From Thermoplasmatota archaeon (GTDB taxonomy: Archaea > Thermoplasmatota > Penumbrarchaeia > Penumbrarchaeales > Penumbrarchaeaceae), in contig JBLIRG010000026.1 in NCBI GenBank assembly GCA_049472195.1, forward strand, positions 1-40,010: a stretch of 40,010 nucleotides of DNA. The letters run 5' to 3'. Below, one piece after another: positions 1 to 27,190 of the stretch (positions within the stretch are counted from its first letter, which is position 1; the number at the start of each line of letters is the position of its first letter). The position numbers and the translations under genes are program-made. A model generated the notes under the pieces. That model made no database searches and was not told the DNA's origin. It was given only the letters and a program-made list of their open reading frames with translations.

Positions 1-198
1 CGAAGGTTGTCGATGACCTCCTGGAATATCTCCACATCGAACAGATTGTCGAACCCGCCCAGTAGGAGTATGAAAACGGGACCGAAAACGAGACCCCCGA
101 GTATGTTCCCCACTATCGTGGGCTGATGGAACCTCTCGGCAACCTTCCCGAAGAAAAGCGCCGCAACGAGGAGCAGCAGCAGATAGATGAAAGAGAAC
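1..198 (-). CDS. Cation:proton antiporter (CPA2/Kef-like), N-terminal fragment; the gene continues beyond the window start
   Basis: Reverse complement of 1-198 translates from ATG (complement of 196-198) as MFSFIYLLLLLVAALFFGKVAERFHQPTIVGNILGGLVFGPV..., about 70% identical to the N-terminus of the adjacent 281..1513 product. No stop before the window edge. Confidence 0.6.
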
Positions 199-280
199 AT
201 GGTCTCGGCGGTAAAAACTCATCCCGTATAAAGTTACCCATGATATAAGGGGGAAAAATGCAGGAAATCGGGAATATATC

Positions 281-1513: not shown

Positions 1514-1577
1514 GTATGGGATGGTGAATCACGGTATCAGTATATATTAGATTGTCCGAAAATCCAGCCGATCGCCG

Positions 1578-2600: not shown

Positions 2601-2634
2601 CCTGTAATCCTCCTCCCTTTGTTTCATCTCCTTT

Positions 2635-3672: not shown

Positions 3673-3759
3673 TACCTCCTTCAGCGGTTTTTTCTACCGC
3701 CTCGTGGAAAAAACATGGATTCGAGTATAATAACAAAGATTGGAAAGAGATTCTTACAA

Positions 3760-6069: not shown

Positions 6070-6229
6070 CCCTTGTACAAGTGATCCGACGGGATTGATA
6101 TATCATATTTGCGTCGTCAAATCCATTTTCCGAAAGCCCGACAATACCCGATTTACGGCCTTTACCAGGGGATTAATGCTGTTATCCTGATTGACGGGGG
6201 GCGGAGGATGGGGTGGTGGATCGAATCGG

Positions 6230-9200: not shown

Positions 9201-10738
9201 GTCCATTGGGATATCTTGCCTCCGATATCGAGATAGTAGGAACCGGGCCCCGTAATCCACGGAAGAACATCCTTTCTGAGTATGCCGTCCCCTGTCAGGT
9301 TCTGACCCACGCCGCCCTGTTCCGATCCCCTCATGGAATATATCTCGGGGTACGGATCGGGGTCCGGGATGCCGTCCTTGTTGGTCCCGAGCCAGTGCTG
9401 TTCTCCCGTGGAATCCCAGAAGCGTCCTTTTATCCACAGCCTCTCATCGACCTCGAAACCCCTGTCCTCGTAGCTGTAATCGAAGAACAGTTCCACGGAA
9501 TTTGCAGCTTCCAGATCGGACGCGTCTATGTCAAAGGAAACACCGTAGGCCCCGGATATATCCACGCCGCCGCTGTTGGATGGCGATACGCCGCCCATCT
9601 CGATCTGAAGCATTCGCACCCTGTTGACGGCCCGGTTCGTGCCTATTGCGTTTCCGGAAGCCTGATTGTACCTCACCGAGTCATACAGGGTATCGTTATC
9701 GTAGATGTGAGCGTCGGACGTGTCCCACCCATCGTCTCCCGCACCCCACCCAAATGTATTCCCGGAGGTTTCTATCGAGGAGGTGAACCTCACCACCCCG
9801 TCGGGGTCCGCTCCCGGAATATCGATGGGTTTGTAGGTGATGTTGAGATAGAATATCCTGATCATCCCGTTCTCCGGTGAGGATATCACCAGGGCTTCCC
9901 GCCCCTCGTTCGCGATGTCCACCGCTTCGAGCTCCGTGCCGTCGGTTATCGCAGCGTCGGGAAGGTTCATCATAACACCGTATTCGGGGAGGCTCCCGCC
10001 GAAGTATACATCCATTGAAGGTTCGTGGGTCCCATCCTGTCCCGATAGAATGATGAGATCGTCCTCGTCATCCCCGGAGAACTCCCCCTCCTTCATCGCA
10101 ATTCCGTATCGGTAGGCGTCATCACCCGTCAGGATATAATCGGCGGCGGTGGGATAGAATTTCTGTCCCTTGTACGCTCCCCTGATCTTTGAAGATCCGA
10201 AGATCAGAACCTTGCCCGCATCGTCATCCGCACCCGGGCAGCCAACAACAATATCCCGCCAGTTATCCTGATCGTAATCCCAGGTCAGGAACGAATATCC
10301 GAGCTGGAATCCGGCATCACCGAGTATGGATACGTCCGCCGATTTCGGATCCAGGTCCTTAAGGTAATTATGATCCCTTCCGCTCTCTCCCCAGTAAATG
10401 TGCAGGGACCCGCTGTCATCCCCCCTCGAATCGTTGTACGGAAGGGCCATGATGATATCATCGCTACCCTCCTCGTCAATATCGACGACGCTCCTGATCC
10501 TCGGCATATCGTCCCGAGTGATCGAATTCGTCACGTCGTCTCCGTAGATCCGGATCGATCCGGCCTCATTTGAGAGGATGATCACGGCGGTAGAGAGGAG
10601 CAGAACGGCAACTGATATCGACAGTGCCCGCCCATCCCGAAAAACTGATGTTCTCATGTTCAACACCCCGAAGATCGCCATACGGATGCCAGCGGATGAC
10701 ATACGCATATCAGCTAGCTCAGCAAAGTTAATGATCAT
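6230..10738 (-). CDS. Giant surface protein (1502 aa) with FG-GAP/beta-propeller repeats, multiple Ig-like domains, single TM and a Lys-rich then Glu-rich cytoplasmic tail
   Basis: FG-GAP-like motifs DIDEEGSDDIIMAL, DIVVGCPGADDDAGKVLIF, DIDGDGWDDLLISDPADGKVHVF. Ig-like repeats containing FFYSRDNSTW. TM GLIAVIGIVIFILLILIVGLFFIF. Tail KKAKKKPIKAKKVKPAEKPRKKKKKPSIEKKADKHRKVKKPKARP then EEELEEFEELEEFEDWEE. Start could be 10738 (leaderless, TATA about 25-30 nt upstream) or the Met at 10657 directly preceding the signal-like helix. Confidence 0.7.
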   Translation of the reverse strand: MIINFAELADMRMSSAGIRMAIFGVLNMRTSVFRDGRALSISVAVLLLSTAVIILSNEAGSIRIYGDDVTNSITRDDMPRIRSVVDIDEEGSDDIIMALPYNDSRGDDSGSLHIYWGESGRDHNYLKDLDPKSADVSILGDAGFQLGYSFLTWDYDQDNWRDIVVGCPGADDDAGKVLIFGSSKIRGAYKGQKFYPTAADYILTGDDAYRYGIAMKEGEFSGDDEDDLIILSGQDGTHEPSMDVYFGGSLPEYGVMMNLPDAAITDGTELEAVDIANEGREALVISSPENGMIRIFYLNITYKPIDIPGADPDGVVRFTSSIETSGNTFGWGAGDDGWDTSDAHIYDNDTLYDSVRYNQASGNAIGTNRAVNRVRMLQIEMGGVSPSNSGGVDISGAYGVSFDIDASDLEAANSVELFFDYSYEDRGFEVDERLWIKGRFWDSTGEQHWLGTNKDGIPDPDPYPEIYSMRGSEQGGVGQNLTGDGILRKDVLPWITGPGSYYLDIGGKISQWTAATEFGAMGFDNLRLTVRSVNNSFRTISGPTGLGSELHAQDIDGDGWDDLLISDPADGKVHVFSGNDSYWRNFDTIELQSSNITINGITQGSETSMARIPPTKTILTDCLAVSDPKKEAENGTGVIHVFHLPLEEGPVLISTSDEKAPQRNGLKDFGWEIVSIGDNGTEGYSDLRIMSWTGDGRLVVSDADRNMADPEIFILSPVMFQEIKGLFEIRARVFDYDGDADPADVVFLWSVNDGAAWSPFPGNGLPDRVEGDTAVKVWNTSNFENKLYTIRADVEDFQGNSVSATVRSVSVINHKPPLVTIIYPLEGFVLEGVTEVTADVSTFGGELLRKPVNFFYSRDNSTWIPLAQVDNPAGGSGTDYTVEIDTKDFADGPIWFMVNASTDFGIEGEGRHIGPVFIDNKYMPEISFITPMGTEDISGTVNISVQITDPDDDLILPAVLWIRDNLAFNSKYALLGNLSGPFHNDTYYYSWNTRDFDNGNYSLMVSVEDESFLNANVEHPAFMIVHNIYTPSVQFEGITDNEEVSGTLHLKARITDRDANFDRTYISFFYREAGGEWIRLAGATLAGDLAQITWDTRDVDDGIYDLMVEVYDLDDEYASDMISNIVVDNRYNPILEPNLPLSGSVLSGVVRLAFNISDEEFIHVDNVVFSVFSKGSWTNLTNTSILADDSGFIPWEAVTYYVDWDTEEEESDGSPRFPDARGYLVRVKVTDADGVDVSWTSKTSYEVMNGEVEVPDVDGDDGRINTGLIAVIGIVIFILLILIVGLFFIFSGERRARKGISEPLPEIGEKKPREAERPPKEPAAEEEVFSAEAMRYGEYGEPPAEVYEPPVPPEISPDDAAFLDEFMVGADIGDSGPAYGQEIQGPVFATSLPLKDEMRGAPEAAIPEWGEEEVDVDLPEGVMPARKAKKKPIKAKKVKPAEKPRKKKKKPSIEKKADKHRKVKKPKARPVEEETWEVEEWGEEEEELEEFEELEEFEDWEE

Positions 10739-10800
10739 GAATATAGATATAAATTGTCATATCCTCAATAGGGATCGGATCGAGCGCGCCGGAATGCATC

Positions 10801-12180
10801 TCAGTTGTACTCGCTCAAAAACTCCTCCACCACATCCAGACCGCCCTGCCCCTGGACGAATCCGTTGTACGGTTCCCGGGGAGTTATCTCACCTGCAATG
10901 GGGGTGAGCATCATCCTGTTAACGGCCTCCGGGTCCTGGACCTGGCCAAGAACCCATCCCAGCTTGCAGTATGCCACCTCTGGAAGCATGTTCTCGAGGG
11001 GGACGATCCCGAGGGACATCAGGTCCCTTCCCGTGTCGTAAACGAACATCTGAACGTAACCGTATAGCGTCTGGACGGTCATGTAAAGATGGATCCCTTC
11101 TTCATGCGCTCTTCTAAGTGGTTCGTACAGCGGCTTGTTCACGTGACCGAGGCCCGTCCCCGCGATCACTATCCCCTTGTAGCCGTTGTCAATCATGGAA
11201 TCGACGATATCGGGATTCATATTGGGATAGTAGTAGAGGATGGCAACCTTCTCCTCGAATTGTGGATATATCCTCACCTCCCTATCATCCCTTCTCCGCC
11301 GGTAGTCGTCCCTGAAGTAGGTGAAATTTCCGTCCTCCACCTTTCCCACCGGAATGTCTCCCAGCGTCTTGAACGTGTTGCGGTAGGAGGAGTGCATCTT
11401 CCTCACCCGCGTCCCCCGGTGGAGATAGCAGAACCTGTCCGATGTGGTCCCGAACATGCATACGAGCACCTCGGCCGCGTCTGAATATGCCGCGGTGGTT
11501 GTGGCACCGATCAGAGTTCTGGCGGCATCCGAAGACGGTCTGTCCGAGGATCTCTGGCTTCCGACCATCACTATCGGAACCGGGGATCCCTGAACCATGA
11601 AGGACAGCGTTGCCCCGGTGTAGTGCATGGTATCTGTCCCGTGGCCGATGGCGATCCCGGCGACGCCCTTCTCTATCTCCCTCTTGATGTTCTCGGCGCA
11701 AACCTTCCACTGGTGGGGTCCCATGTTCTCCGAGAAAACACCGAACAGCTTACGGGTCGTGATGTTGGCTATGTCGGCGAGTTCTGGAACCGCACCGAAC
11801 AGCTCTCCGGGAGTGAAGGCGGGGATCACCGCACCCGTCCTGTAATCGAGGCGGGACGCGATCGTTCCGCCTGTTCCGAGTATGGTCACATCCGGAAGGT
11901 CCGGATTCACGGGGAACTCCTTCTCGGGGATCCTGTAATTGGCCTTCTTCGATCCCTCGGATACGAGATTCCGGATGTTGTCGACGTGGATCCCTATGTT
12001 GTATCCGGTGATCATCTTGATGACCAGATGGGAGTCGTCCCCTGCGGACCTGGGAAGGATTATACCCTCCACCAAACCGTCCGGAGTGGTTACCCTGACT
12101 CTGTCCCAAACGAAGGCGTTCTCTCTCTGGAGCACCTCAAGGGCGGGGCCCCTGTATCCTTGATACCTGTCCTCGGTCAT
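10801..12180 (-). CDS. gatD: Glutamyl-tRNA(Gln) amidotransferase subunit D (archaeal GatD, asparaginase-like)
   Basis: 459 aa. N-terminal GatD-specific domain followed by asparaginase signature ILGTGGTIASRLDYRTGAV and a second asparaginase-type motif region. No gatE adjacent. Confidence 0.75.
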   Translation of the reverse strand: MTEDRYQGYRGPALEVLQRENAFVWDRVRVTTPDGLVEGIILPRSAGDDSHLVIKMITGYNIGIHVDNIRNLVSEGSKKANYRIPEKEFPVNPDLPDVTILGTGGTIASRLDYRTGAVIPAFTPGELFGAVPELADIANITTRKLFGVFSENMGPHQWKVCAENIKREIEKGVAGIAIGHGTDTMHYTGATLSFMVQGSPVPIVMVGSQRSSDRPSSDAARTLIGATTTAAYSDAAEVLVCMFGTTSDRFCYLHRGTRVRKMHSSYRNTFKTLGDIPVGKVEDGNFTYFRDDYRRRRDDREVRIYPQFEEKVAILYYYPNMNPDIVDSMIDNGYKGIVIAGTGLGHVNKPLYEPLRRAHEEGIHLYMTVQTLYGYVQMFVYDTGRDLMSLGIVPLENMLPEVAYCKLGWVLGQVQDPEAVNRMMLTPIAGEITPREPYNGFVQGQGGLDVVEEFLSEYN

Positions 12181-12237
12181 GTGACCACAACGTGCGGGTA
12201 GGATAACACCCTAAATAACGGTTTTCTTTCATTAGAG

Positions 12238-13527
12238 CTAGAATATCCATCCCATGATCACTATGACGATAAGCAGGGAGCCCGATCCGGCTATATCCAT
12301 GGATGCCGTCAGAAGCGGGATCACCACGTTGTCCGGGTCCAGACCGATCTTGAAAGATAGATATGCAAGATAGTATGCGGAGGCTGAGGATATGATCGAG
12401 ATGAGGGTCGCCCCAGTAAGCATGGTCAGAAGCAGGACGGGAAAGAAGGGGATCTCAACACCCGCCGAGGATCCCAGGAAAAAACCCCCGACGGCCATGG
12501 CGCTGAACACCACCATCGATATCAGCCACAGTGTGGATGTCGTGGATACGGATAGAGTGTTCGGCTTGAGTGTGAGCCTGTGGGTCCCGAGATATCCCGC
12601 GGATGTGATCCTGGATCCCAGGATCGAACCTATCGATCCTCCCTGACCGTTGAAAGCCGGGATCAGGAGGAGGAATACGGTCCCCTGGAACATCGACGAG
12701 AAGTTATTCTCCAGTATCAAACCCGATATGGAAGAGAGGATTATCGCACCCAGTGCGATCGGAAGAGCGTTCTTGATGATCGATCGGTATTCACCCCTTA
12801 TCACGATCATGGTCACGGCGGAGACAATGATCAGAAGGACCAGTGACGTATATGCTGCGGTCGCTGCTACGGGTGAGCTTAATGAAACGGTGATCCATGC
12901 GGCCAGGAAGAAGATGGGAATCGTGAGCACATCCCCTGTCGATGCAATTATCGGTGCCGAGACGTTGTCCGGGTCCCACCCCTTCCGAAACGAGATGAAC
13001 GTTATGGACAGGGATATGGCGAACATGAGGATGCCGGACAGTATGCCTCCGAGAAGGGATATCAGCAGGAGCTCGTGGAATTTTGCGATCTCCACGCCTG
13101 CTATCAATGCCATTAGCGTTCCCGCGAACGGTATCAGCGACGAGAGCACCATGAGCTGTATGCCGGACGCCATCATCTGTTGTTTGAGTTCGGAGTTTCG
13201 CCTGAACCGAGGTTCGATTGTACCGAGATGCAGTCTCGAAGACAGCCTTGCGGCCAGGGCTCCGAATGTGTTCCCCCTCAATCCGACCGTGGGGGGAAGG
13301 AGTATGAGAAGCCCCGGAACCAGAATGAGATACCGCTCGAATGTGCCGAGAAAATAGCCGGGAAAAAGATCGATCATCGCGCAGATCAGGAGGATCATCG
13401 TCGACTGGCGGAGAAGGCCCCGATCCGGTTTTATGAACTCCGAGAGTACCTTTTTAACGAATCCGACGATGGCCCTGGCTGGGGATATGGTGCCTTCTCT
13501 CTTCTGGAGACTCCCCAGGGCGGCCAA
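12238..13527 (-). CDS. MgtE-like Mg2+ channel membrane domain protein (tandem-duplicated MgtE TM domain, no CBS or N-domain)
   Basis: 429 aa, about 10 TM helices. Two copies of the MgtE pore signature (GWDPDNVSAPIIASTGDVLTIP and GLDPDNVVIPLLTASMDIAGSG). Confidence 0.6.
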   Translation of the reverse strand: MAALGSLQKREGTISPARAIVGFVKKVLSEFIKPDRGLLRQSTMILLICAMIDLFPGYFLGTFERYLILVPGLLILLPPTVGLRGNTFGALAARLSSRLHLGTIEPRFRRNSELKQQMMASGIQLMVLSSLIPFAGTLMALIAGVEIAKFHELLLISLLGGILSGILMFAISLSITFISFRKGWDPDNVSAPIIASTGDVLTIPIFFLAAWITVSLSSPVAATAAYTSLVLLIIVSAVTMIVIRGEYRSIIKNALPIALGAIILSSISGLILENNFSSMFQGTVFLLLIPAFNGQGGSIGSILGSRITSAGYLGTHRLTLKPNTLSVSTTSTLWLISMVVFSAMAVGGFFLGSSAGVEIPFFPVLLLTMLTGATLISIISSASAYYLAYLSFKIGLDPDNVVIPLLTASMDIAGSGSLLIVIVIMGWIF

Positions 13528-13729
13528 TGTCCATTCCTCCTGATTTCATTCGTTGGTGAGGATCATCTTCGTTCATGACGGATCTACCTCGTCGTGCGGC
13601 AACACCGCCCGACGTGTTGTGACCAACTATGTATTATTTATTGTTTACCCATCACGCTCTGTCCGTTGAAGAGTTGATTAACGTCGTTTTTCTATTGATC
13701 CTGGTCTTTACAACTGATGGTTGTGTTAA

Positions 13730-13771
13730 TTATTTATAGAAGTTTAAATAATAACAAGTTATTTATAGAAG
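13730..13771 (+). promoter_or_regulatory. Thermosome promoter region with directly repeated TTATTTATAGAAG motif (TATA-box-like), two copies 29 nt apart
   Basis: Copies at 13730-13742 and 13759-13771. The second copy lies about 55 nt upstream of the thermosome ATG (13827), which is preceded by an AGAGGTGA Shine-Dalgarno. Confidence 0.45.
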
Positions 13772-13826
13772 GGATCATTTGGGGGCCTCCCCAACTGTAA
13801 ATTACGATTGAAAAGAGGTGAAAATT

Positions 13827-15485
13827 ATGATCGGTGGAACTCCAATCCTGGTGCTCAAGGAAGGCACCGAAAGGGAAAGCGGAAAGAGGGCGCAGATTAG
13901 AAACATCCAGGCGGCAAAGGCCATAGCCGATGCGGTCAGGACAACCCTCGGACCGAAGGGAATGGACAAGATGATGGTGGACTCCATGGGAGACGTCATC
14001 ATAACGAATGACGGCGTGACGATACTCAAGGAGCTCGACGTCGTTGGACCAGCCGCAAAGATGGTCGTCGAGGTCGCGAAGACCCAGGACGAGCAGTGCG
14101 GTGACGGGACCACAACCGCTGTGATCTTCGCCGGGGAGCTCCTGAAGCTCTCCGAGGCTCTCATCGAGAAGAACATACACCCAACCTTGATCACAGAGGG
14201 CTACAGGCTGGCCGCCGACAAGGCCGTTGAGGTGCTGAAGAGCGTCGCCATGGATGTATCCCATGACGATGTCGAGACCCTGAAGAAGATAGCCATGACC
14301 TCCATGACCGGAAAATCCTCGGGAGGGATGAAGGAGATCCTCTCCGACATGGTCGTGAAGGCGGTCATCGCGGTGGCGGAGAAATCCGGCGACAAGTGGT
14401 CCGTCGATATCGACAATGTTAAGGTCGAGAAGAAACAGGGCGGATCCATCCAGGAATCCAGCCTGATCGAGGGGATCATAGTTGACAAGGAGAGGGTTCA
14501 CGAGGGGATGCCCCATATCGTCGAGAATCCTAAGATCGCACTGATCAACGCCGCCTTCGAGGTTAAGAAGACCGAGGTGGATGCAAAGATCCAGATCACC
14601 GACCCGTCCCAGTTCCAGGCATTCCTGGAGAATGAGGAGAAGATACTGAGGGATATGGCGAACAAGGTCGAAGCCGCCGGAGCCAACGTTGTCTTCTGCC
14701 AGAAGGGAATCGACGACCTGGTCCAGCACTTCCTGGCCAAGAAGGGAATCTTCGCCGTGAGAAGGGTGAAGAAGTCCGACATGGAAAAGCTTTCCAAGGC
14801 CACTGGTGCCAAGATAGTATCAAATCTTGACGATCTCTCCGCGGAGGACCTGGGAACGTCTTCCAGGGTGGAAGAGAAGAAGATCGGAGGGGACGAGATG
14901 ACCTTCGTCACCGGCTGCGAGAATGCCAAAGCGGTATCTCTTCTGATCCGCGGGGCATCGGAGCATGTCATAGACGAGATCGAGAGGGGCATCCACGACG
15001 CCCTCTCAACCGTCGGAGATGCGATCGAGGACGGAAAGATGACCGCAGGCGGCGGGGCGGCAGCCATCGAGCTCGCCAGGGAGCTCAGGACCTTCGCCAT
15101 ACAGACCGGGGGCAGGGAGCAGTTCGCCATCGAGGCGTTCGCGACAGCTCTCGAGGTGGTCCCGAGGACCCTCGCCGAGAACGCCGGTCTCGATCCCATA
15201 AACACGATAATCGAGATCAACAAGGCACACAGCAACGGCAACAAATACCACGGGGTCAATGTGTTCACCGGACAGGTCGAGGACATGAGGGCCCTCAACG
15301 TCCTCGAGCCCCTCAGGGTAGGGACCCAGGCCATCCAGGCCGCGACGGAGACTGCCAACATGATCCTCAGGATCGACGATGTCATCGCGGCCAAAGGATC
15401 CCACGACGGCGGCGGCGGAATGCCCGGCGGAATGCCTCCGGGCGGCATGGGCGGTATGGGCGGTATGGGAGACATGGATTACTGA
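13827..15485 (+). CDS. ths: Thermosome subunit (group II chaperonin, Cpn60/TCP-1 family)
   Basis: [49 protein letters not shown]..., [18 protein letters not shown]-binding motif, C-terminal [11 protein letters not shown] tail. ATG at 13827 preferred over GTG 13818 because of Shine-Dalgarno spacing. Confidence 0.95.
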
Positions 15486-15538: not shown

Positions 15539-17221
15539 TTATGTACTAACTGGACCAGTGGCAACGTTCGGATGTGATAACACATCCCTGAACGCTGACA
15601 ACGATTCGTCGGTGGAATCGATATCGTATATCCACGTCTCATCGATCCCGTTCCACCAGATCGCCATCCAGATATTTGGATAATCTTCGAATAGCGATTT
15701 GAGACCTGTTTCGATCCATTCTGATTTACTCCCGCCGACCTCGTTGCATGCGAACTCGGTGATCATGAACGGCTTGGAAGAGTAACGCCTCATGTAATCA
15801 TCATAGAGATCCAAGTAGCATTCCTCGAAATCTCTCCAAACTTCGGTGGGACGGGTGATGCCGTTGTTGTAGGCTGTAAGCCCGATCCAGTCAACCATAT
15901 CATCCCCGGGATAATACAGCGGAGGAGCCTGCCATTTATAATCCGGATAGGTACGATCATGAGGATTCCATACGAATTGAACATTATCTGCCCCGATATA
16001 ATCGAATATTGTATGAATTCGAACCCATGCCATGATATACAGATCCGGATCGAGACCGTAAAACCAAGAACACCACTGGGTCCAGTCGCCGTTCATCTCG
16101 TTTGCGAATCTCAAGAAGATCGGCTCTGACAGATCCCTAAGCCCGATCGCCCACTCAACGAGATATTGATCATATTTTCCGTTGAGAATATCAAGAAGAA
16201 CTACTTGACCATCGAATTCCTCACTGTGTGAGTTCACATATGGTTGTAAGGTCAGAAGTAAGACATGTCCCTGATCGTAATGATTGTAAATGAAATCCTT
16301 TGCCTCACCGAATTGGCAGGTGAAATTGAAATAATCCATGAAGAATGGAAAATCATACAGAAGGCGGGTTTCAAGAACCTTGATTTCGTCCCAGTACTTA
16401 CTATGGGGTGCATGATAAATCCCGATTAACTTCTGATCTTCAGGGATCGATATGGTCGTCTTATCACCTTCAATGTTGATCTCGTTAACCAGAGGTTCGG
16501 GAATCTGTGATCTTTCAACATGAGCTTTCTCATCCCAGAAATCCATGGTTGATAGGGACATTTCAAGAATATATTTTAACATGGATATATTATCAGAACT
16601 ACTTTTCAGGAAGACGGTAAATAAGGTCCTCTCATCCAGTTGATAATTATATTCAAAATAGTGATTCAGATCGATATCGATCGATGATATTTTGGTCCGT
16701 CGATATTCTATTATATTGAACGTTCTCCCGCCGATCACACGATCTTCATCCGATACATGGGTAATCTCCCCGTAGCCATTTCGAATGTTCAAATTGGAAT
16801 AATCGATAAAGGTCTGGACCTCTTCAAAAGATGTATTTAACACATGCTTCATCACCGTGATCTTCATATCCGGATCCCTGAAACATAAAACAAAATCGGA
16901 ATCGGAATCGTCGATCGTCCAATATGACGGTATAGCCATCCGGTAACCGTCGATATAATTCCAGAACATATTATGTGTTGAGTTGAATGGTGTCGTCGTT
17001 ATCATAAAATGAGATTGATCTCCAATCAATCCGGAAGAATATTCGGCCATTTTCGCATTGATCATATCAAGATCAATATCTCCTGCATTTTTTCCGAGAT
17101 CATTGATATCATCTCCGGATGAAATGATCTCTACTATTACCGCATAAAATGATGAACTACTAATGGATATTAAACATATGATAGAAATCACTGGGATTCG
17201 TATCACTCTTTCATCCATCAA
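15539..17221 (-). CDS. Secreted or membrane-anchored protein with C-terminal glycoside hydrolase family 26-like (beta-mannanase-like) domain
   Basis: 560 aa. N-terminal hydrophobic signal or anchor. C-terminal half carries the GH26-like acid/base motif LRFANEMNGDWTQWCSWFYG and nucleophile motif FMITEFACNE. Gene is markedly AT-richer than its neighbours. Confidence 0.55.
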   Translation of the reverse strand: MMDERVIRIPVISIICLISISSSSFYAVIVEIISSGDDINDLGKNAGDIDLDMINAKMAEYSSGLIGDQSHFMITTTPFNSTHNMFWNYIDGYRMAIPSYWTIDDSDSDFVLCFRDPDMKITVMKHVLNTSFEEVQTFIDYSNLNIRNGYGEITHVSDEDRVIGGRTFNIIEYRRTKISSIDIDLNHYFEYNYQLDERTLFTVFLKSSSDNISMLKYILEMSLSTMDFWDEKAHVERSQIPEPLVNEINIEGDKTTISIPEDQKLIGIYHAPHSKYWDEIKVLETRLLYDFPFFMDYFNFTCQFGEAKDFIYNHYDQGHVLLLTLQPYVNSHSEEFDGQVVLLDILNGKYDQYLVEWAIGLRDLSEPIFLRFANEMNGDWTQWCSWFYGLDPDLYIMAWVRIHTIFDYIGADNVQFVWNPHDRTYPDYKWQAPPLYYPGDDMVDWIGLTAYNNGITRPTEVWRDFEECYLDLYDDYMRRYSSKPFMITEFACNEVGGSKSEWIETGLKSLFEDYPNIWMAIWWNGIDETWIYDIDSTDESLSAFRDVLSHPNVATGPVST

Positions 17222-20967: not shown

Positions 20968-22074
20968 TCATATCCTTACCAGATCGTAATCGGATGACCC
21001 CATACCGAGCTCCTCGGCGTAGGTGATCTGAAGATAACCGTTGGTCTTCTCCCTCATTCCCTTGAATTTATCCTTTCCAGGTTCATGGTTCTTCTTCAGC
21101 TTCGTATCGAGAAATCCCTGGCTTGAATTGACGAGATCGTAGGAAGCCCTGTCAATGGCCACCGGATCCCTGGATGCCAGGATCCCTATGTCGGGAACTA
21201 TCGGATGATCGCTCCATGAGAAGCAGTCGCAGTCGGGGGATATCTTCAACAGGAAATTGATGTAACCGCATCTGTCCCTCTTCCCGTCCACAGCTCCGTA
21301 TGCGTATTCCACCATTCTTTCCATAAACGGGTCGATCTCGGATTCCCAGTCCAATCCTATGGCATCTGCTGGACATACGGTCATGCACTCGCCGCATCCG
21401 ATGCATTTCTCCCTTACTATGAAGGATTTCCCGCCCTCGATGTGCGGTGCGTCCACCGGGCAAATATCCAGGCACTCTCCGCAGCCAATGCATCTGGCGG
21501 CCGCGACCTTGGGTCTTGCCGAGTGCTGGTCCATCTTGCCGTAGGCGGTTGCGCATCCCATTGCAAGGTTCTTGATCGCACCCCCGAAACCGGCCATCTC
21601 GTGGCCTTTGAAATGGCTCATCACGATCATCGAATCGGCCCGGTGAATATCTCCGGCGATCCTCAGGCTTCCGAAGTGCTTTCCGGCCATCTTGACATTG
21701 ACCAGGTTCTTTCCCGTAAGCCCGTCTGCGATTATGATCGGGGCCCCCACTACAGCGTAGTCGAATCCGTGAAGCACTGCCGTCTCGATGTGATCCACCG
21801 AATTGTGCCGGCTTCCCTTGTACAAGGTATTCGTATCGGTAAGGAAAGGTCTTCCTCCGGATTCCTTTATGCGATCAACGACCGGTCTGACGAATATGGG
21901 ATTGATGAACGCATCCCCGCCCATCTCCCCGAAGTGGATCTTGACGGCAGTGAGATCATCTTTCTTGATCAGGTCACTAAAACCAGCCCTGTCGAACAAT
22001 TTACCGATCTTGCTCGCCTTGTTGCTCCCAGTATTCCTTGCCTTCAGATCAGCGAAGTAAACCTCTGATGCCAT
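20968..22074 (-). CDS. DUF362-domain protein with two [4Fe-4S] ferredoxin-type cluster motifs
   Basis: 368 aa. Two CxxCxxCxxxCP motifs (CIGCGECLDICPV, CIGCGECMTVCPA) embedded in a DUF362-like scaffold. Confidence 0.55.
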   Translation of the reverse strand: MASEVYFADLKARNTGSNKASKIGKLFDRAGFSDLIKKDDLTAVKIHFGEMGGDAFINPIFVRPVVDRIKESGGRPFLTDTNTLYKGSRHNSVDHIETAVLHGFDYAVVGAPIIIADGLTGKNLVNVKMAGKHFGSLRIAGDIHRADSMIVMSHFKGHEMAGFGGAIKNLAMGCATAYGKMDQHSARPKVAAARCIGCGECLDICPVDAPHIEGGKSFIVREKCIGCGECMTVCPADAIGLDWESEIDPFMERMVEYAYGAVDGKRDRCGYINFLLKISPDCDCFSWSDHPIVPDIGILASRDPVAIDRASYDLVNSSQGFLDTKLKKNHEPGKDKFKGMREKTNGYLQITYAEELGMGSSDYDLVRI

Positions 22075-22690
22075 ACAGATGCCCCCGTATATCTTGTATC
22101 ATCTCGGAAACCGTGAGTTATCCTTATGGCGAAAACATTATTTTATTCTTTCAAAATAAATGGTTGAATGGCGACTGAACTGCGATAGACGCATTTTTTC
22201 AAAAGGTTTGGCGGGGAATTAACCCCGCCGTTTTCCTCTCTTCCCTTTACTCACCCGTGGGGTGGGTCCCATAACCTCCGTTGTTCAGAGGATCGTCATA
22301 TACAATGAGGTCCGTCCTTCGGGACCGATAATGATCCGCATCATTGATCCGGATCTTCACATGGCGAATGTTCTGATATCAATTCCCTTGAAAACACTTC
22401 TTCGGCACCTCCTGGATCATTCATCAACATCCGCACATTTTCTCTCCTTTATCACCCGTTGTTTTCATTCTTCATCGTATCCTCGTTTTCCCCGTTCCAC
22501 AATTAATATTATGTTTAAATGATTATATGACTATTTTTAATGACATTAATGAACTTTTATTCTAAAATTCAATTATAAATACGGATCTTGGATCCCTTGC
22601 ATGTTTTCAAACTACAGGATCGGGGATCATAATATGATCGGGATTCCCGCGGAAATATCAGAAAAGTATATATATGGATTATGGAAAACT

Positions 22691-22889
22691 ATCGGATTTT
22701 TCAATTTAGTTATATACTCTTGATATTGATATAAAACATAGAGGCGAGGGGGCTCCCCGGAGTGCAATGGTACGGGCCTTCCGGAAAGCCCTTGAAATCC
22801 CTCTAGATAGTATAGTACACATATGGTATTAGAAGATGTCGAAAAAAAACGAGGGATTCCGCCTGAAAAACGCAAAGGAGGTGAAAATA
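22691..22889 (+). promoter_or_regulatory. Conserved roughly 200-nt upstream element, copy A: GGATTTTTCAAT box, TATA box, GTGCAATGGTACGGGCC and CTTGAAATCCC blocks, AGGAGGTGA Shine-Dalgarno
   Basis: Block-wise homologous, with conserved spacing (box to GTGCAAT 71-72 nt; GTGCAAT to ATG 124-128 nt), to copy B at 25935-26133. Confidence 0.6.
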
Positions 22890-23027
22890 ATGGAAAGGAG
22901 AACCGACAATGCATCTGACCGCGATGGAGGCATATTCTACGATTGGTTCCCAACGGAGGAGATAATTGCGCCCTCGTATCTGGTCCTCAGACTCATCAAC
23001 CTGTACTCGTTCAGGTATCCGAGATGA
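22890..23027 (+). CDS. Small ORF A (45 aa), hypothetical peptide MERRTDNASDRDGGIFYDWFPTEEIIAPSYLVLRLINLYSFRYPR
   Basis: Strong Shine-Dalgarno AGGAGGTGA 7 nt upstream. The start region (ATGGAAAGGAG vs ATGGAAGAGGA) and the C-terminal ...LYSFRYPR motif are homologous to small ORF B (…MYNCRYPRC). Confidence 0.45.
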   Translation: MERRTDNASDRDGGIFYDWFPTEEIIAPSYLVLRLINLYSFRYPR

Positions 23028-23145
23028 ACTGCAGGGAGATCTTGACAATCAAGGACAGGCGAGAACATCGGAATAAACCGAAAAAGGGGAGAATGACAGA
23101 AAAACTTATATAGGCCTGCAATAAAACTATAGGATTTCTGATAAA

Positions 23146-23179
23146 CCATATATATACTCCCCAATGATACTTCATCTGA
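23146..23179 (+). promoter_or_regulatory. Third copy of the island promoter motif (ATAGGATTTCTGATAAACCATATATATACTCC)
   Basis: Shares ATMGGATTT box plus a TATATA box about 14 nt downstream with copy A (22691-22724) and copy B (25935-25967). Confidence 0.45.
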
Positions 23180-23227
23180 GGGTGGGGGAACGGAGCGGGG
23201 ATTGAATGCGTAAAAAGCCCGAAATAA

Positions 23228-23285
23228 AACGGAAAGAAACGGGTTCCGCCCATTTCTTTCCGTTACCATTTTCAACTTATTTTCC
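23228..23285 (+). terminator. Hairpin (16-bp imperfect inverted repeat AACGGAAAGAAACGGG / CCCATTTCTTTCCGTT) followed by T-rich tract
   Basis: Stem 23228-23243 and 23249-23264, loop TTCCG, then ACCATTTTCAACTTATTTTCC. Lies about 50 nt downstream of the third promoter copy. Confidence 0.45.
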
Positions 23286-23389
23286 ATATTTGAGAATATT
23301 CTAATGAATTATCATTATTCGCGAAATATTCCGATCCCGAATGGAAAAATTATATCTATACTACTACCCATTCTAAGATCGAGGGCTGT

Positions 23390-24754
23390 ATGAAGATAGA
23401 TAGAGAATCCCAGGTAATGTACGGAGTTCACCTCCTACTCGGTGTCGATGACTACTCAAGGGGACATGACAAGCAGGAGCTTTCGAACGCACTCGGAATA
23501 TCAAGCAACACGCTCGATCTCTATCTTGCCCATCTTTCAAAGCGGGATCTGATCAACAGGAAGAAATCAAGATACCAGAAGGAGATCAGACAGATCATAA
23601 AATTGACCGAGGAGGGGGCAAAGGAGGTTCAGAAGATCGAATCGGACATCAACAAACTCCTCCTTACCAACGAGCGGCACAATATTCCCAACTGCATAAA
23701 CGTAACAGATATTCTGAGCAGGATCCCCGATCCCCTCGCGAAGATATTCTTCCTTGCGGTCTACAACAAATACAAGAGCTTCGATCTGCCGATGTTCCTG
23801 GAGACGCTGAGGATCTCCAAGCAGGATGTGAACATAATCAACCTCTTTCCGGGATCAGAGGGAAGCTATTCCGATACAGGAAGAATCCCCCTTATCGAAT
23901 CGATATTCAAAACATGTTTCTACGGGGATATCGACTGTGAAATATTGGACACCGATGTCTGGGGCGAGAAGGATATCGATGCATTTCTCGTCGTCGCCGA
24001 GGCCAGGCTCAAACAGGGAAAGCTCAAAGACGCGGAGATGATTTATGATTATATTCTGTCACCTAAACTCGAGATCACTCAGAACCAATGGTTTATAGCA
24101 CGCCTGGGAATGGTAAACATACTGCGAAGACAGGGCAAATTCGATGAAGCTTTGGAGCAGCTCGATGAGATTCACGACATGGTCGATGACAGCGTATACC
24201 AGGCCTTCATAAAGGAGAACAAAGCCTTGATCTACACCATAACCTACCAAAATCAGAAATCCATGGATATGTTCAAAAGGTCAATAGCATCATTCACCAC
24301 TCATGGCCTACCACTTATGCTTTCTATCGCATACAATAACCGCGGGACCTGTTACTTCAGGATGGAAGATTACCAGAATGCGGAGAAGGACTGGATCAAA
24401 GCGAGAAAATTCGCCAAGAAAGCACAGTCCGCTTACTGCGAGGCTGCCATCCTGTGCAATCTATCGGATACGACTGCCATGAAGGGAAAGATAGATCTTG
24501 CTGTCAAATATCTCAATAAGGCCTTCAAGATATTCAAGGAGATTCCTGATTACGAGGGAATGGCAAGTGTTTACTACAACTTCTCACTCCTTTATCTTGA
24601 GAGCGGGCAGCTTGAAAACGCATTGGAAAATTTCCGAAATTCGATTACGGTTGCAGAACCTCTTCCTTCTGATTTTGAAAAGAAAGACTGGAGAAAAACC
24701 TTCATCCAGAGGGGGAAGGACCACGGTTTCGACTCTATAGAAAATATAATATAA
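23390..24754 (+). CDS. wHTH-TPR protein (N-terminal winged helix DNA-binding domain plus C-terminal tetratricopeptide repeats)
   Basis: 454 aa. N-terminus ELSNALGISSNTLDLYLAHLSKRDLINRKKS is HTH-like. C-terminal half has multiple 34-residue TPR-like units (for example AYNNRGTCYFRMEDYQNAEKDWIKARKFAKK, LCNLSDTTAMKGKIDLAVKYLNKAFKIFKE, YYNFSLLYLESGQLENALENFRNSI). TATA-like box about 35 nt upstream. Confidence 0.6.
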   Translation: MKIDRESQVMYGVHLLLGVDDYSRGHDKQELSNALGISSNTLDLYLAHLSKRDLINRKKSRYQKEIRQIIKLTEEGAKEVQKIESDINKLLLTNERHNIPNCINVTDILSRIPDPLAKIFFLAVYNKYKSFDLPMFLETLRISKQDVNIINLFPGSEGSYSDTGRIPLIESIFKTCFYGDIDCEILDTDVWGEKDIDAFLVVAEARLKQGKLKDAEMIYDYILSPKLEITQNQWFIARLGMVNILRRQGKFDEALEQLDEIHDMVDDSVYQAFIKENKALIYTITYQNQKSMDMFKRSIASFTTHGLPLMLSIAYNNRGTCYFRMEDYQNAEKDWIKARKFAKKAQSAYCEAAILCNLSDTTAMKGKIDLAVKYLNKAFKIFKEIPDYEGMASVYYNFSLLYLESGQLENALENFRNSITVAEPLPSDFEKKDWRKTFIQRGKDHGFDSIENII

Positions 24755-24823
24755 TGATCATTATTATTCACAAATGGATTGAAATATTCAATCAATTTGA
24801 ATAAATATGTGGGGTGATGTGAT

Positions 24824-25420
24824 TTGGTAAAAAAAGCGTTAATCATCATTTCCGATGATTACCACGGAATGACCAATGGTTTCGAATTGGAAAAAGCGGA
24901 AAGGCTCAGAGATGATTTGAGAAGCAAGGGATGGATCGTTAATAGTGACGATAATTCAAATGATCAGATCGTGGTCAATAGAAATGATTTTTTAGCTCTC
25001 AGGGATTGGTTGAGGGACCACCCAAACCAGCCGGATGATGAATTTCTCGTGTATATCGCCGACCAGACCCATCTGATTGCCGGAGACGATATCAAGATAT
25101 CATTTTCGACTGGAGAGGCGAATATTGTCGATGAGATCGACTATGAATTCAAAGATCATCTTTGTGTTGAGTTCACACTCGTATTTGGGGGTCCAAAATC
25201 GGGAGGTGCCATCCATGATCAGACACATCTCGGACCAAAATGTCTTGTGATATGCTCGATGCATGAATCAGAGGATTATAATGATGATCTGTTTGATCTT
25301 CAGTACAGCCTCATGGGAGATAATTTCCTGGAGGCTGGAAGACAGGAAAGGGCCAGGCTGCTTCTTGAGAATCCTGTACAACACGTACAATTGAAGAATA
25401 GGAACAATCCGGTACCGTGA
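24824..25420 (+). CDS. Hypothetical protein (198 aa), possibly a caspase-like (peptidase C14-type) fold. Start uncertain (TTG at 24824; first ATG is Met16)
   Basis: N-terminal strand KKALIIISDDY, then helix ELEKAERLRDDLRSKGWIVN, then DEFLVYIADQTH (His position) and KCLVICSMHE (Cys position). These follow the strand/His/Cys order of caspase-like domains. Internal repeat DQTHL appears twice. Confidence 0.35.
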   Translation: MVKKALIIISDDYHGMTNGFELEKAERLRDDLRSKGWIVNSDDNSNDQIVVNRNDFLALRDWLRDHPNQPDDEFLVYIADQTHLIAGDDIKISFSTGEANIVDEIDYEFKDHLCVEFTLVFGGPKSGGAIHDQTHLGPKCLVICSMHESEDYNDDLFDLQYSLMGDNFLEAGRQERARLLLENPVQHVQLKNRNNPVP

Positions 25421-25434
25421 ACGAACATCGGCAG

Positions 25435-25740
25435 TTAATGATTTTTAATCCAGCTGCCGATGATTATTCCTTTTTCTTTTCTCAATTTATCCTTTTTTTC
25501 CTTAATATATTCGTATTCTTCTTCGTTTTTGATTTTATGGATCATCGCGTCGAGGTCCATCCTCTCTATTTTGCATACCTCGCTGTACATCGCACGAATT
25601 GCCCTGACTCTCCTCCTCCCCGCACATTTCGGCAAAGGCCTTTCCGGTCTTTCACCATCGATGTAACCGTTGTATATCTCCCTGATTATATCCTTGTTCG
25701 TTTTACCCATTTCAATTCCCTCCTGATCAAACAATATCAT
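25435..25740 (-). CDS. Hypothetical small basic protein (101 aa)
   Basis: ORF MILFDQEGIEMGKTNKDIIREIYNGYIDGERPERPLPKCAGRRRVRAIRAMYSEVCKIERMD...KEKKDKLRKEKG. TATA-like ATTTATAT about 25 nt upstream on the minus strand, so possibly leaderless. The plus-strand overlapping ORF is poly-Phe junk. Confidence 0.4.
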   Translation of the reverse strand: MILFDQEGIEMGKTNKDIIREIYNGYIDGERPERPLPKCAGRRRVRAIRAMYSEVCKIERMDLDAMIHKIKNEEEYEYIKEKKDKLRKEKGIIIGSWIKNH

Positions 25741-25934
25741 ATGAAAAAGGAAATATAAATAGATAAAGGATTGTGTTCTTCAGGAAATATAATCTTCATT
25801 TAGTTCAAATAATGTTAAAATATTCTCATATTTATACATTCATGGCAGGTCGAATATTCAATTAGGATAGGATAAATAATGCATGATATGGGAAAAAGCG
25901 GAGAGTAAACCTTATATATGCCTTTCCGGAAAAT

Positions 25935-26133
25935 ATAGGATTTTTCAATCCCCTTATATATCCTGATAGCCGATATTCAATTGCAGCGAGGAGGAATGCC
26001 GACCGGTGCAATATGGTACGGGCCCGGGCGGCGATCCTTTGAAATCCCGAAAGATCCGAACCGGATCGTCATGATCCCGGGGGGGATCGGTGGGGATTTC
26101 TTCCGCTAGAAAATACCGAAAGGGGGTGTAGTG
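25935..26133 (+). promoter_or_regulatory. Conserved roughly 200-nt upstream element, copy B (ATAGGATTTTTCAAT box, TTATATAT, GTGCAATATGGTACGGGCC, CTTTGAAATCCC, GGGGGTG Shine-Dalgarno)
   Basis: Homologous to copy A with conserved block order and spacing. Confidence 0.6.
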
Positions 26134-26226
26134 ATGGAAGAGGAAAATAAACTGAGGTATTGGGAGATTGTCCCTATCTGGTTCCGCCTTGCCAGCATGT
26201 ATAACTGCAGATATCCGAGGTGCTGA
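26134..26226 (+). CDS. Small ORF B (30 aa), hypothetical peptide MEEENKLRYWEIVPIWFRLASMYNCRYPRC
   Basis: Homologous to small ORF A at both DNA and peptide level (…Y(S/N)(F/C)RYPR). Followed by its own terminator hairpin. Confidence 0.45.
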   Translation: MEEENKLRYWEIVPIWFRLASMYNCRYPRC

Positions 26227-26260
26227 GAGGTGAGTAAATTTGGGGGTCCGGCCGCGTGTG

Positions 26261-26287
26261 GGGGTCCGGACCCCTGTCCTTTTTTTT
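26261..26287 (+). terminator. Intrinsic-terminator-like hairpin GGGGTCCGGACCCC followed by TGTCC then T7
   Basis: Perfect palindromic GC-rich stem followed by a T-run, 35 nt after the stop of small ORF B. Confidence 0.55.
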
Positions 26288-26359
26288 GAAAAGTTTTAAA
26301 TCGATACGGATCGATAGGTAACCGAACCATACTGGCTCGATTTCGAAGGTGAATCCGTA

Positions 26360-27190
26360 ATGAGATCGCTCGCATTAATCTCCATACTGATATCCGCAGT
26401 TGTTCTGACCTTCCCGGCCGCGGCTGCGGGGATCGGGGGGGAGGAGGATATCCTTCAGGAGGAGGGTGTGGTATACACCGAGACCAAGAACCTGTCCCGC
26501 CCCAACAGGATCGCGGTGATCGAGGTGGAGGGTTACGGAACGATCAGGATCGAGCTTTACGATAACATGACCCCTATAACAACCCAGAACTTCGTGGACC
26601 TCGCGAACCGGGGATTCTACGACGGGATCAAGTTCCACCGGTGCATAGACGATTTCGTGGCCCAGACCGGAGATCCGAACACGAAGAACATGAATCCCTA
26701 CGACGACGGCTCTGGTGGATCCGGGACCACGATACCTCTTGAGATCAATTACAACGCCACCCATATTGACGGGGCGGTCGGAATGGCCAGATCTACCGAA
26801 CCGGATTCCGCCTCGTCCCAGTTCTACATCTGCGACGGGCCCCAGCACGGACTGGATGACGAGGTGAGGATGGACAGCAGCGGATCCCACGGATACGCGG
26901 TTTTCGGCGTGGTCGTGGCCGGATTGGACATTGCAAAGAGGATCGCAGGGACGGAGACCTACGGCAATACAAGGCCGCTTCTGAAGGATCACCCGGTCGA
27001 CGACATAGTGATGACCCGCGTGACCATCGAGGATGGGGATTGGTCGAACTTCACCGGACCGGACAAATCAGAGGACGGGGATTCCTCCGGATCAAAATCG
27101 GACGCCCCGGCTCCGGGATTGATCCTTGCTGCGGGAACCGTTCTCCTTATCCTGGTTGTCTCGGGCGGGAGAAGAAAGCGCCGTCCCTAA
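26360..27190 (+). CDS. Secreted cyclophilin-type peptidyl-prolyl cis-trans isomerase with C-terminal Pro-Gly-hydrophobic-basic sorting or anchor segment
   Basis: Signal peptide MRSLALISILISAVVLTFPAAAAG. Cyclophilin motifs GTIRIELYDNMTPITTQNFVDLA, GFYDGIKFHRCIDDFVAQTGDP, GAVGMAR. C-terminus PAPGLILAAGTVLLILVVSGGRRKRRP. Confidence 0.85.
   Translation: MRSLALISILISAVVLTFPAAAAGIGGEEDILQEEGVVYTETKNLSRPNRIAVIEVEGYGTIRIELYDNMTPITTQNFVDLANRGFYDGIKFHRCIDDFVAQTGDPNTKNMNPYDDGSGGSGTTIPLEINYNATHIDGAVGMARSTEPDSASSQFYICDGPQHGLDDEVRMDSSGSHGYAVFGVVVAGLDIAKRIAGTETYGNTRPLLKDHPVDDIVMTRVTIEDGDWSNFTGPDKSEDGDSSGSKSDAPAPGLILAAGTVLLILVVSGGRRKRRP

Follow-up and report, generated by a model that had tools for sequence, protein, structure and literature searches.

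Tetratricopeptide repeat (TPR) peptide sensors encoded beside micro-open reading frames (micro-ORFs) characterise Firmicutes and their phages, where the RRNPP regulators comprise Rap/Phr, NprR/NprX, PlcR/PapR, PrgX, Rgg/SHP and AimR/AimP. To our knowledge, archaea have very few known classes of cis-regulatory RNA. In cyanobacteria, a glutamine riboswitch lies upstream of gifB/IF17 (PMC6212724). Here, we analyse a 4.3-kb AT-rich island (positions 22075-26359) between a DUF362 gene and a cyclophilin gene of a Thermoplasmatota archaeon, located in a stretch of 40,010 nucleotides of contig JBLIRG010000026.1 that we refer to as the window. The island encodes a regulator combining a winged helix-turn-helix (wHTH) with TPRs, a 198-residue partner protein and two small peptides, the latter encoded in modules with a repeated promoter and a structured leader RNA. 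We tentatively read the island as one copy of a lineage-specific Thermoplasmatota accessory cassette that would constitute a self-contained regulatory circuit, the mechanism of which we infer. In the literature searched, we found neither an archaeal RRNPP-like system nor a description of this cassette.

Regulator, partner protein and peptide strictly co-occur. We fetched 12 other contigs bearing homologues, and in all 12 the regulator gene, present in one or two copies, is followed downstream by a gene for a protein of about 200 residues (the P200 family). A hidden Markov model (HMM) of the small peptides located a peptide beside the regulator in 11 of these contigs, and the twelfth (L083) retains only promoter and leader, at the contig end. 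In the window as in the 11 contigs, no more than about 1.5 kb separates the peptide ORF from the regulator/P200 pair. About 35 full-length regulator homologues (38-83% identity) were found, all in metagenome-assembled genomes (MAGs) of Thermoplasmatota or in metagenomes; a metagenome scan returned one 1.5-kb fragment only.

The position of the cassette varies over at least four genomic contexts (Table 1). The initial annotation had proposed a comparison of synteny among relatives, and positional conservation is confined to the close relative (L081/L082), in which the same island lies between the same DUF362 and cyclophilin genes; the housekeeping genes share about 80% nucleotide identity, the peptide modules are 83-96% identical to those of L081 and the genes about 80%. 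The site is empty in the more distant L005, where a 405-residue gene lies directly beside DUF362 with neither island nor cyclophilin, and the other loci carry the cassette elsewhere. The best match in a scan of representative genomes for DUF362 was 69% identical. The gap between the thermosome and Peptidase_M29 genes, which holds the cassette in several contigs, is empty in L070 (366 nt) and contains in the window a 560-residue GH26-like ORF (15539-17221, minus strand; Pfam 2.4e-8) that forms a second AT-rich island (GC 0.415; z-score of the GC content at third codon positions (GC3) -3.0). This gap is a variable-gene hotspot. The cassette occupies different loci, and sites are empty in some relatives; it is therefore accessory and, on an evolutionary timescale, changes its place. 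The cyclophilin gene is absent together with the island in L005, and the insertion or deletion may therefore comprise both.

The regulator matches TPR_12 in Pfam (8e-25), HTH_34 weakly and TPR_MalT below threshold, and its N-terminus matches the NCBIfam models HpaR, Lrs14, OhrR and SlyA, all under the family cutoffs. In a profile search against the PDB, MarR proteins were matched over residues 24-89 and LGN, NprR (E = 1e-6) and RapJ over the TPR part. The TPR_12 match and the MarR/Lrs14-type winged-helix matches bear out the wHTH-TPR identity that had been given to the protein in the initial annotation. The AlphaFold2 model (mean predicted local distance difference test (pLDDT) 80) shows a helix-turn-helix with a beta wing and helix pairs with pLDDT above 90. 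Foldseek aligned it to peptide-binding TPR superhelices, namely LGN, Rap-Phr complexes, subunits of the APC and the C-degron receptor APPBP2; the matches to Rap-peptide complexes reached E values of about 4e-5 and TM scores of 0.4-0.5, and the similarity to the TPRs of NprR and Rap is no better than that to the TPRs of LGN, the APC and kinesin light chain. Within the family, the recognition helix hardly varies (T41, L42, Y45, L49).

Modules 1 and 2 each consist, in this order, of a promoter, a G+C-rich leader of about 125 nt, an A-rich linker, a Shine-Dalgarno (SD) sequence and a small ORF, and module 3 lies upstream of the regulator gene. The SD sequences, GGAGGUG in module 1 and GGGGGUG in module 2, match the archaeal anti-SD. 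The module 1 ORF is kept in L081/L082 and is annotated at NCBI as a hypothetical protein (ACMUIG_04635). That of module 2 encodes 30 residues from ATG 26134 or 31 from GTG 26131 and ends in ...WFRLASMYNCRYPRC; its region is 96% identical to L081 at the nucleotide level, and the module closes with a terminator hairpin followed by eight T (26258-26287). Both small-ORF modules of the initial annotation are thus confirmed by peptide HMM matches and by their conservation in relatives.

Across the family the peptides are 21-45 residues long and rich in W, Y, R and P. Their N-termini vary in length, and the last 16 residues, often with CxxxxC, are conserved with the C-terminal consensus W[YF]RLxNxYPxRWPRC-stop, to which the longer forms add an upstream [FY]DW motif. 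The invariant Arg is encoded by five different codons and the invariant Pro by three; selection therefore acts on the protein sequence of the peptide. A collection of 5.8 billion proteins contains only 11 such peptides as called genes, all of them unannotated. The module 2 ORF is missing from the proteins that the public collection returned, probably an annotation error, and in L084 (15184-15450, minus strand) an 88-residue gene is called antisense to a peptide module, again a probable annotation error.

Upstream of each module of the island lies the same composite promoter. The pattern GGATTT-N(10-18)-TATATA occurs four times in the window, as against 0.03 expected, and none of 100 shuffles reached four; three of the sites fall in the island (22694-22716, 23132-23156 and 25938-25960) and one outside it (1541-1565, minus strand). 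The island copies are 64-nt direct repeats (22657-22720, 23095-23158 and 25901-25964) with 61-70% identity, built from a purine-rich stretch resembling a TFB recognition element (BRE) with a first TATA box (TATA1), a spacer of about 17 nt, AAAAnTATnGGATTTTTCAAT, a spacer of 4-5 nt and a second TATA box (TATA2). The core of the repeat is thus a GGATTTTTCA box between BRE/TATA and the second TATA. Homologous modules in relatives have the same layout with GGTTTTT(T)CA replacing GGATTTTTCA. The box is an imperfect dyad, GGWTTTT..WWCC, with the form GGATT-TTTC-AATCC in module 2; it abuts TATA2 and lies about at the expected start of the TATA1-driven transcript. That the wHTH-TPR protein binds this box as a putative operator is a reasonable hypothesis, with indirect support from the near-invariance of the recognition helix and the comparable conservation of the box.

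The island's own promoter motif, as proposed initially, is therefore real as a repeated element; it is not a lone GGATTT box but a dual-TATA architecture that is found family-wide, with GGTTTTT in other clades. Of the ranges originally given for the boxes, 22691-22724 and 25935-25967 are correct and 23146-23179 lies about 14 nt too far right. We rejected the view of the modules as repeats resembling miniature inverted-repeat transposable elements, as the copies are paralogues that have diverged from one another and lack terminal inverted repeats. The match at 1541-1565 precedes a CPA2 cation:proton antiporter ORF (281-1513, minus strand) by about 30 nt and is without the upstream TATA1 and A-run; it is possibly an extra regulon member or a chance match.

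The leaders fold into a conserved three-way junction. With the SD removed, all 14 leaders adopt this topology as their minimum free energy (MFE) structure, as against 50 of 2,100 dinucleotide shuffles (2.4%), and their fold z-scores range from -2.4 to -5.8. An enclosing helix P1 of 4-19 bp surrounds the P2 hairpin, which spans 38-53 nt, and the P3 hairpin, which spans 54-70 nt. In module 1 the topology is shared by 5 of 150 shuffles (fold z = -2.6). The arms of P1 vary by clade with their complementarity held, as is also the case between modules 1 and 2, and three close pairs (window/L081, L002/L084 and L002_B/L084_2) show double changes from G-C to A-U in P1. As the MAFFT alignment put the 3' helices out of register, we compared the leaders by parsing the MFE structure of each sequence and by covariance models. 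One such model, seeded with five leaders, recovered six non-seed leaders with E values from 1e-7 to 7e-3, and the models R1 and R2 recovered the leaders of L088, L091, L093, L095 and L083. In the resulting 11-leader alignment, 86.6% of the cells are paired, as against 73.4 +/- 1.2% in shuffled and 38-53% in slid controls, the pairing being inflated because the alignment was fitted to the covariance model; compensatory pairs number 25 of 41, as against 14.4 +/- 2.2 in shuffled and 4-12 in slid controls. None of 500 shuffles reached the observed pairing or compensatory count. The window leaders have the topology in common with the others, as well as the junction motifs CGAGGRGG and CCUUGAAAUCCC. 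Rfam gave no match to the window at gathering score, and to the island nothing relevant up to E = 10. The leader RNA is a candidate for an undescribed structured-leader family with clear covariation.

The pyrimidine-rich 3' arm of P1 is able to pair with the SD. With P1 enforced, the modelled accessibility of the SD is 0.54, as against 0.25 when P1 is blocked, and it is higher in the enforced state in 10 of the 14 leaders; the values for module 1 are 0.76 and 0.34. An upstream ORF in the P2 loop (AUGGUACGGGCC) was rejected as a component since it is conserved only within the clade of the window. Three further observations concern the leaders and other RNAs. In L002 (15272-15422, minus strand) and its relatives, the alignment fold pairs CGAGG with CCUCG around P2 and the single-sequence fold puts the same CCUCG in P3, so that the two pairings may represent alternative leader conformers. 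In L094 (2583-2723), a leader match (E = 2e-4) lies inside a called 214-residue gene, probably an annotation error. Within the window, 22203-22350 (minus strand) resembles a C/D-box small RNA (SNORD109A in Rfam, a weak match of 23 bits, E = 0.21), has near-canonical C and D boxes and carries the terminal stem GGAUC/GAUCC; it is about 72% conserved in L081 and adjoins a GC hairpin with a T-run at 22209-22240.

Module 3 has the same promoter and no conserved ORF. Its first 110 or so nucleotides of predicted transcript are about 95% identical to L081, as against about 80% for the neighbouring genes, and 100 nt separate its end from the downstream TATA box proximal to the regulator gene (23344-23361). 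The product is a candidate small RNA or a candidate attenuated 5' untranslated region of the regulator gene.

The 198-residue protein evolves fast, with 47% amino acid identity to L081 as against 83% for the regulator and 84% for the flanking 405-residue protein. Word-based searches with it find only itself and exhaustive HMMER searches five proteins. An alignment of the 20 proteins encoded downstream of regulators conserves the motifs hhYhDD, GxxSG, DxF and ExxRL, with G123, S126, D155 and E175 invariant. The initial annotation had considered the protein possibly caspase-like. This reading fails because neither catalytic residue is conserved: the position of Cys144 holds Cys in a minority of the 20 homologues and otherwise Ser, Ala, Thr or Ile, and there is no conserved His column. 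Pfam, NCBIfam and PADLOC gave no match, including to Peptidase_C14 and CHAT, and the PDB profile search yielded the caspase Nc at E = 1 only, which is noise.

One subfamily of these proteins carries an unusual signature. In the window protein the pentapeptide DQTHL occurs twice (encoded at 25061-25075 and 25217-25231), and every member of the subfamily likewise contains a stretch of 4-8 residues that is repeated exactly, at positions homologous among the proteins; the repeated sequence differs between orthologues (Table 1). Repeats of the observed length arose in 0-5 of 300 shuffles for all but one protein. The two copies within a protein differ by 2-7 synonymous nucleotides; the identity of the repeats is therefore kept by selection at the protein level and not by gene conversion. 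The duplicated pentapeptide looks like a co-evolving recognition motif or interface presented twice, and the obvious candidate for its putative reader is a dimeric TPR regulator. NCBI probably places the start of the 198-residue protein (ORF 24824-25420) 21 residues late, as the N-terminus is conserved in L081.

A small basic protein had also been counted among the island's contents. The 101-residue ORF is indeed basic, and it is not conserved even in the closest relative: no locus holds a homologue and the region is unalignable with L081, so that we rejected it as a fourth conserved component. Small basic ORFs that follow the 200-residue gene in L083 (3906-4187, minus strand) and L091 (8035-8280, plus strand) share RKxEIxxYxxLK with each other and nothing with the 101-residue ORF.

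Table 1. Features of the island in the window, followed by the contexts of the cassette in other contigs and the internal repeats of the 198-residue family.
Feature	Position	Strand	Description
Module 1 promoter	22657..22720	+	BRE/TATA1 22662-22677; GGATTTTTCAAT box 22694-22705; TATA2 22710-22719; from repeat and motif scan
Module 1 leader	22742..22864	+	P1 AGGCG/CGCCU, 22742-22746 with 22860-22864; long P2 hairpin; P3 hairpin; MFE fold
Module 1 SD and 45-residue ORF	22877..23027	+	SD 22877-22883; ORF 22890-23027, MERRTD...LINLYSFRYPR-stop; peptide HMM E = 2e-13
Module 3 promoter	23095..23158	+	TATA1 23101-23116; GGATTTCTGATA box 23132-23143; TATA2 23147-23160; kept in L081/L082
Module 3 non-coding region	23160..23285	+	16-bp hairpin 23228-23264, then T-runs 23266-23285; fold z = -2.2
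wHTH-TPR regulator, 454 residues	23390..24754	+	MarR/Lrs14-like winged helix; disordered linker 139-193; about 7 TPR-like helix pairs
198-residue alpha/beta protein (P200 family)	24824..25420	+	Homologue downstream of wHTH-TPR in all loci
101-residue basic ORF	25435..25740	-	pI (isoelectric point) 9.1; strain-specific; cassette membership doubtful
Module 2 promoter	25901..25964	+	TATA1 25907-25922; GGATTTTTCAATCC box 25938-25951 (GGATT/AATCC inverted repeat); TATA2 25953-25963
Module 2 leader	25985..26107	+	Three-way junction; P1 AGCG/CGCU; fold z = -2.7
Module 2 SD, ORF and terminator	26122..26287	+	SD 26122-26128; ORF to 26226, MEEENKLRYWEIVPIWFRLASMYNCRYPRC-stop; peptide HMM E = 2e-16
Cassette in thermosome/Peptidase_M29 gap			L002, L084, L086, L094
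Cassette beside 1400-residue secreted DUF7948/fn3 protein			L083, L088, L091, L093, L095
Cassette beside S8 peptidases			L092
Cassette in defence-like neighbourhood			L090
Internal repeats of 198-residue family			Window DQTHL; L081 DQTHLGP; L083 MDDTIQLI; L091 YGQL
Internal repeats of 198-residue family, continued			L092 DHSQY; L093 DQIQL; L095 DIGHL; P0048 DLISL

In the circuit that we propose, the winged helix would bind the dyad between the two TATA boxes and thereby control the peptide promoters and, in the clade of the window, the short RNA that precedes the regulator gene. What the TPR domain would sense is a short linear peptide, for which the invariant C-terminus of the small peptides and the duplicated, co-varying pentapeptide of the 200-residue protein are the candidate ligands. 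The leader might add translational control, the 3' arm of P1 pairing either with the purine-rich 5' arm, leaving the SD free, or with the SD itself. The far-reaching joint claim, that a convergent archaeal RRNPP-like circuit in which a wHTH/TPR protein reads peptide motifs and drives private dual-TATA promoters goes together with a new riboswitch-like class of three-way-junction RNA gating micro-protein translation, seems doubtful to us.

Several results weigh against this circuit. The peptides have no export signal, their N-termini being acidic or polar with no hydrophobic h-region, and the RWPRC C-terminus stays invariant while the receptors share only 40% identity, a poor fit to specificity-type signalling. 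In loci with two regulator genes, only one peptide was found. The AlphaFold2 model of the 198-residue protein is unusable (pLDDT 52.7). The composite promoter pattern has 14 matches across 192 kb of cassette-bearing loci and none across 1.2 Mb from other loci, which favours the circuit, but it was drawn up from the very instances that are counted. Covariance models from other clades score the window leaders at only 9-14 bits (E 0.8-8, not significant); the window leaders are still among the top matches, at exactly the right coordinates, and the weak scores leave position, topology and junction motifs as the basis of their homology. The P1 arms discriminate weakly between cognate (-16.2 kcal/mol) and non-cognate (-12.6 kcal/mol) duplexes, a comparison blurred by noise, since every arm is rich in purines or in pyrimidines. 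Lastly, the modelled coupling of P1 to the SD is nil in module 2 (0.51 with P1 enforced or blocked) and reversed in three leaders.

Part of the data could be accounted for without a peptide-sensing regulator. The Arg/Trp-rich peptide could be an RNA-binding autoregulator acting on its own leader, as in ribosomal-protein leaders, with the wHTH-TPR and 200-residue genes being mere neighbours or separate regulators. That leader and ORF always occur together and are conserved above the neighbouring genes would be explained by such feedback, as would the W/Y/R/P-rich composition of the peptide and the modelled coupling of SD exposure to P1. We nevertheless regard it as improbable, since it leaves the strict linkage with the wHTH-TPR and 200-residue genes over at least four contexts unexplained and since L090 has a peptide and promoter with a short, unstructured leader. 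The variable N-terminus (21-45 residues in total) ahead of 16 conserved C-terminal residues, often with CxxxxC, would also suit a precursor that is processed like a ribosomally synthesised and post-translationally modified peptide (RiPP), losing its N-terminus, with the always adjacent 200-residue protein as the enzyme and the TPR protein as scaffold or regulator; the top NCBIfam match of the TPRs is in fact a RiPP-biosynthesis TPR protein, at 44.9 bits with a cutoff of 1125 bits. RiPP cores are usually variable, however, whereas the C-terminus here is invariant, no recognisable enzyme domain, transporter or protease was found with Pfam, PDB profiles, PADLOC or NCBIfam, and the GxxSG, DxF and ExxRL motifs match no catalytic signature, all of which makes such a maturation system very unlikely. 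To a module for anti-virus defence, or one akin to toxin-antitoxin pairs, we give hardly any credence. In such a module the small peptide would be toxic. Its place in an island, its variable positions and one rapidly evolving gene would fit, the L090 copy (1-15371) sits among TIR, Schlafen/AlbA_2-HATPase, RelA/SpoT-TPR, NUDIX and HD genes, and PADLOC gives a weak TPR match (3.5e-5); but no other component matches a defence family in PADLOC, the peptide is without a 20-residue hydrophobic stretch and is thus not a membrane-spanning toxin, and most loci lie outside defence neighbourhoods.

The composition of the island bears on yet another explanation, according to which it came recently, by horizontal transfer, from a donor rich in AT, its unusual composition marking it as foreign. 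The drop in GC content between the DUF362 and cyclophilin genes, as noted initially, is confirmed in 500-nt windows (0.37-0.47 at 22001-26000 and 0.51-0.58 on both flanks). Overall, the island has a GC content of 0.426 and the rest of the window of 0.542 (background about 0.55). Compared with 21 background genes (0.556 +/- 0.021), its genes lie 5-8 standard deviations low, with z-scores of -5.0 for the wHTH-TPR, -6.1 for the 198-residue and -7.8 for the 101-residue gene. Codon usage, proposed as a check in the initial annotation, sets apart the 198-residue and 101-residue genes (GC3 z of -3.2 and -2.6), as well as the GH26-like gene, and not the regulator (z -1.4, inside the background). The empty site in L005, the differing loci between genomes and a cassette GC below that of the host in 13 of 13 loci would likewise accord with acquisition.

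On the other side of the balance, the GC deficit of the regulator gene lies mainly at codon position 2 (z -2.8) and reflects amino acid composition, and its GC content correlates with that of the host (r 0.72, 13 loci). It has diverged from L081 no faster than its neighbours, at 83% amino acid identity as against 84% for the flanking 405-residue protein, within an island that is syntenic in L081/L082 at about 80% nucleotide identity. No tRNA, integrase or transposase domain or flanking pair of direct repeats was found at the island, the absence of integrase and transposase agreeing with the initial annotation; no relatives of the regulator turned up among viral contigs, and the homologue family is restricted to Thermoplasmatota. 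The non-coding share of the island amounts to 42%, with a GC content of 0.40. The AT-richness thus comes mostly from this promoter-dense non-coding DNA, the amino acid composition of the TPRs and atypical codon use in fast-evolving genes. Given the normal GC3 and host-tracking GC of the regulator, its ordinary divergence, the non-coding fraction and the lack of mobility genes, a recent foreign origin of the whole island is weakly supported, and we deem it unlikely. Of the horizontally acquired accessory cassette first suggested, the accessory part holds, through presence/absence and positional variation, and recent acquisition is weakly supported, as codon usage of the regulator, host-GC tracking, synteny and lineage confinement speak against it.

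Two observations on the surroundings remain to be reported. The N-terminus of the cyclophilin (26360-27190, plus strand) resembles a signal peptide and its C-terminus bears a hydrophobic segment and RRKRRP, by which the protein is predicted to be probably surface-anchored; the stop codon of its gene overlaps the convergent 405-residue gene by 4 nt. A region of the window at 1578-10738 (minus strand) is syntenic with 1-6458 of L084 and encodes an HVO_0163-type HTH regulator and, beside GatD, very large Big_7/FG-GAP surface proteins of 769 and 1502 residues.

The circuit that we tentatively favour would offer a compact archaeal example of regulator, putative operator and micro-protein, along with a candidate new family of structured-leader RNAs. 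It also offers a protein family with paired identical pentapeptides that co-vary between orthologues and differ at synonymous sites, which indicates a co-evolving recognition interface. Current annotation misses or mis-calls such micro-ORFs and leaders, and what looks like an AT-rich island in a MAG can stem from a promoter-dense regulatory cassette instead of a recent transfer of genes.

With genomic islands and variable-gene hotspots, the locus shares low GC, presence or absence in relatives and recurrent insertion gaps (thermosome/M29 and DUF362/405-residue gene), but it has no integrase, tRNA or att repeats and its core regulator is compositionally ameliorated. The N-terminal 90 residues of the regulator resemble MarR/Lrs14 winged-helix factors, matching the HpaR, OhrR, SlyA and Lrs14 models and MarR structures below cutoffs; unlike in those factors, they are fused via a disordered linker to a 260-residue TPR domain, and the dimerisation helices of one-domain MarR proteins are not evident. 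The combination of an HTH with a TPR sensor recalls the larger MalT/SARP/AfsR regulators and STAND proteins such as PH0952, with sub-threshold matches to TPR_MalT (Pfam) and AfsR (NCBIfam) and a Foldseek match to 6mfv, whereas the regulator here has no NB-ARC or AAA ATPase module and only 454 residues. Like the glutamine riboswitch of gifB (PMC6212724), the leader is a conserved structured 5' element directly before a small-protein ORF, in which the 3' strand of the closing helix can compete for the ribosome-binding site; it differs in being a three-way junction of about 125 nt with no Rfam match and a switch that is thermodynamically modelled only.

The RRNPP systems are the closest in overall design, and the cassette is not a member of them. 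It is archaeal, its DNA-binding domain is a MarR/Lrs14-type winged helix instead of an XRE-type HTH or the 3-helix bundle of Rap, its peptide has no signal sequence and an invariant rather than pherotype-specific C-terminus, and it includes an extra 200-residue partner gene and a structured leader RNA. The circuit thus fails two defining RRNPP features, the HTH type and the exported variable propeptide. It resembles RRNPP systems, through functional links that we infer, in that a cytoplasmic receptor joins a DNA-binding domain to a TPR-type superhelix, in that a very small ORF sits beside the receptor gene, and in that several copies of the cassette are found next to genes for secreted proteins or proteases.

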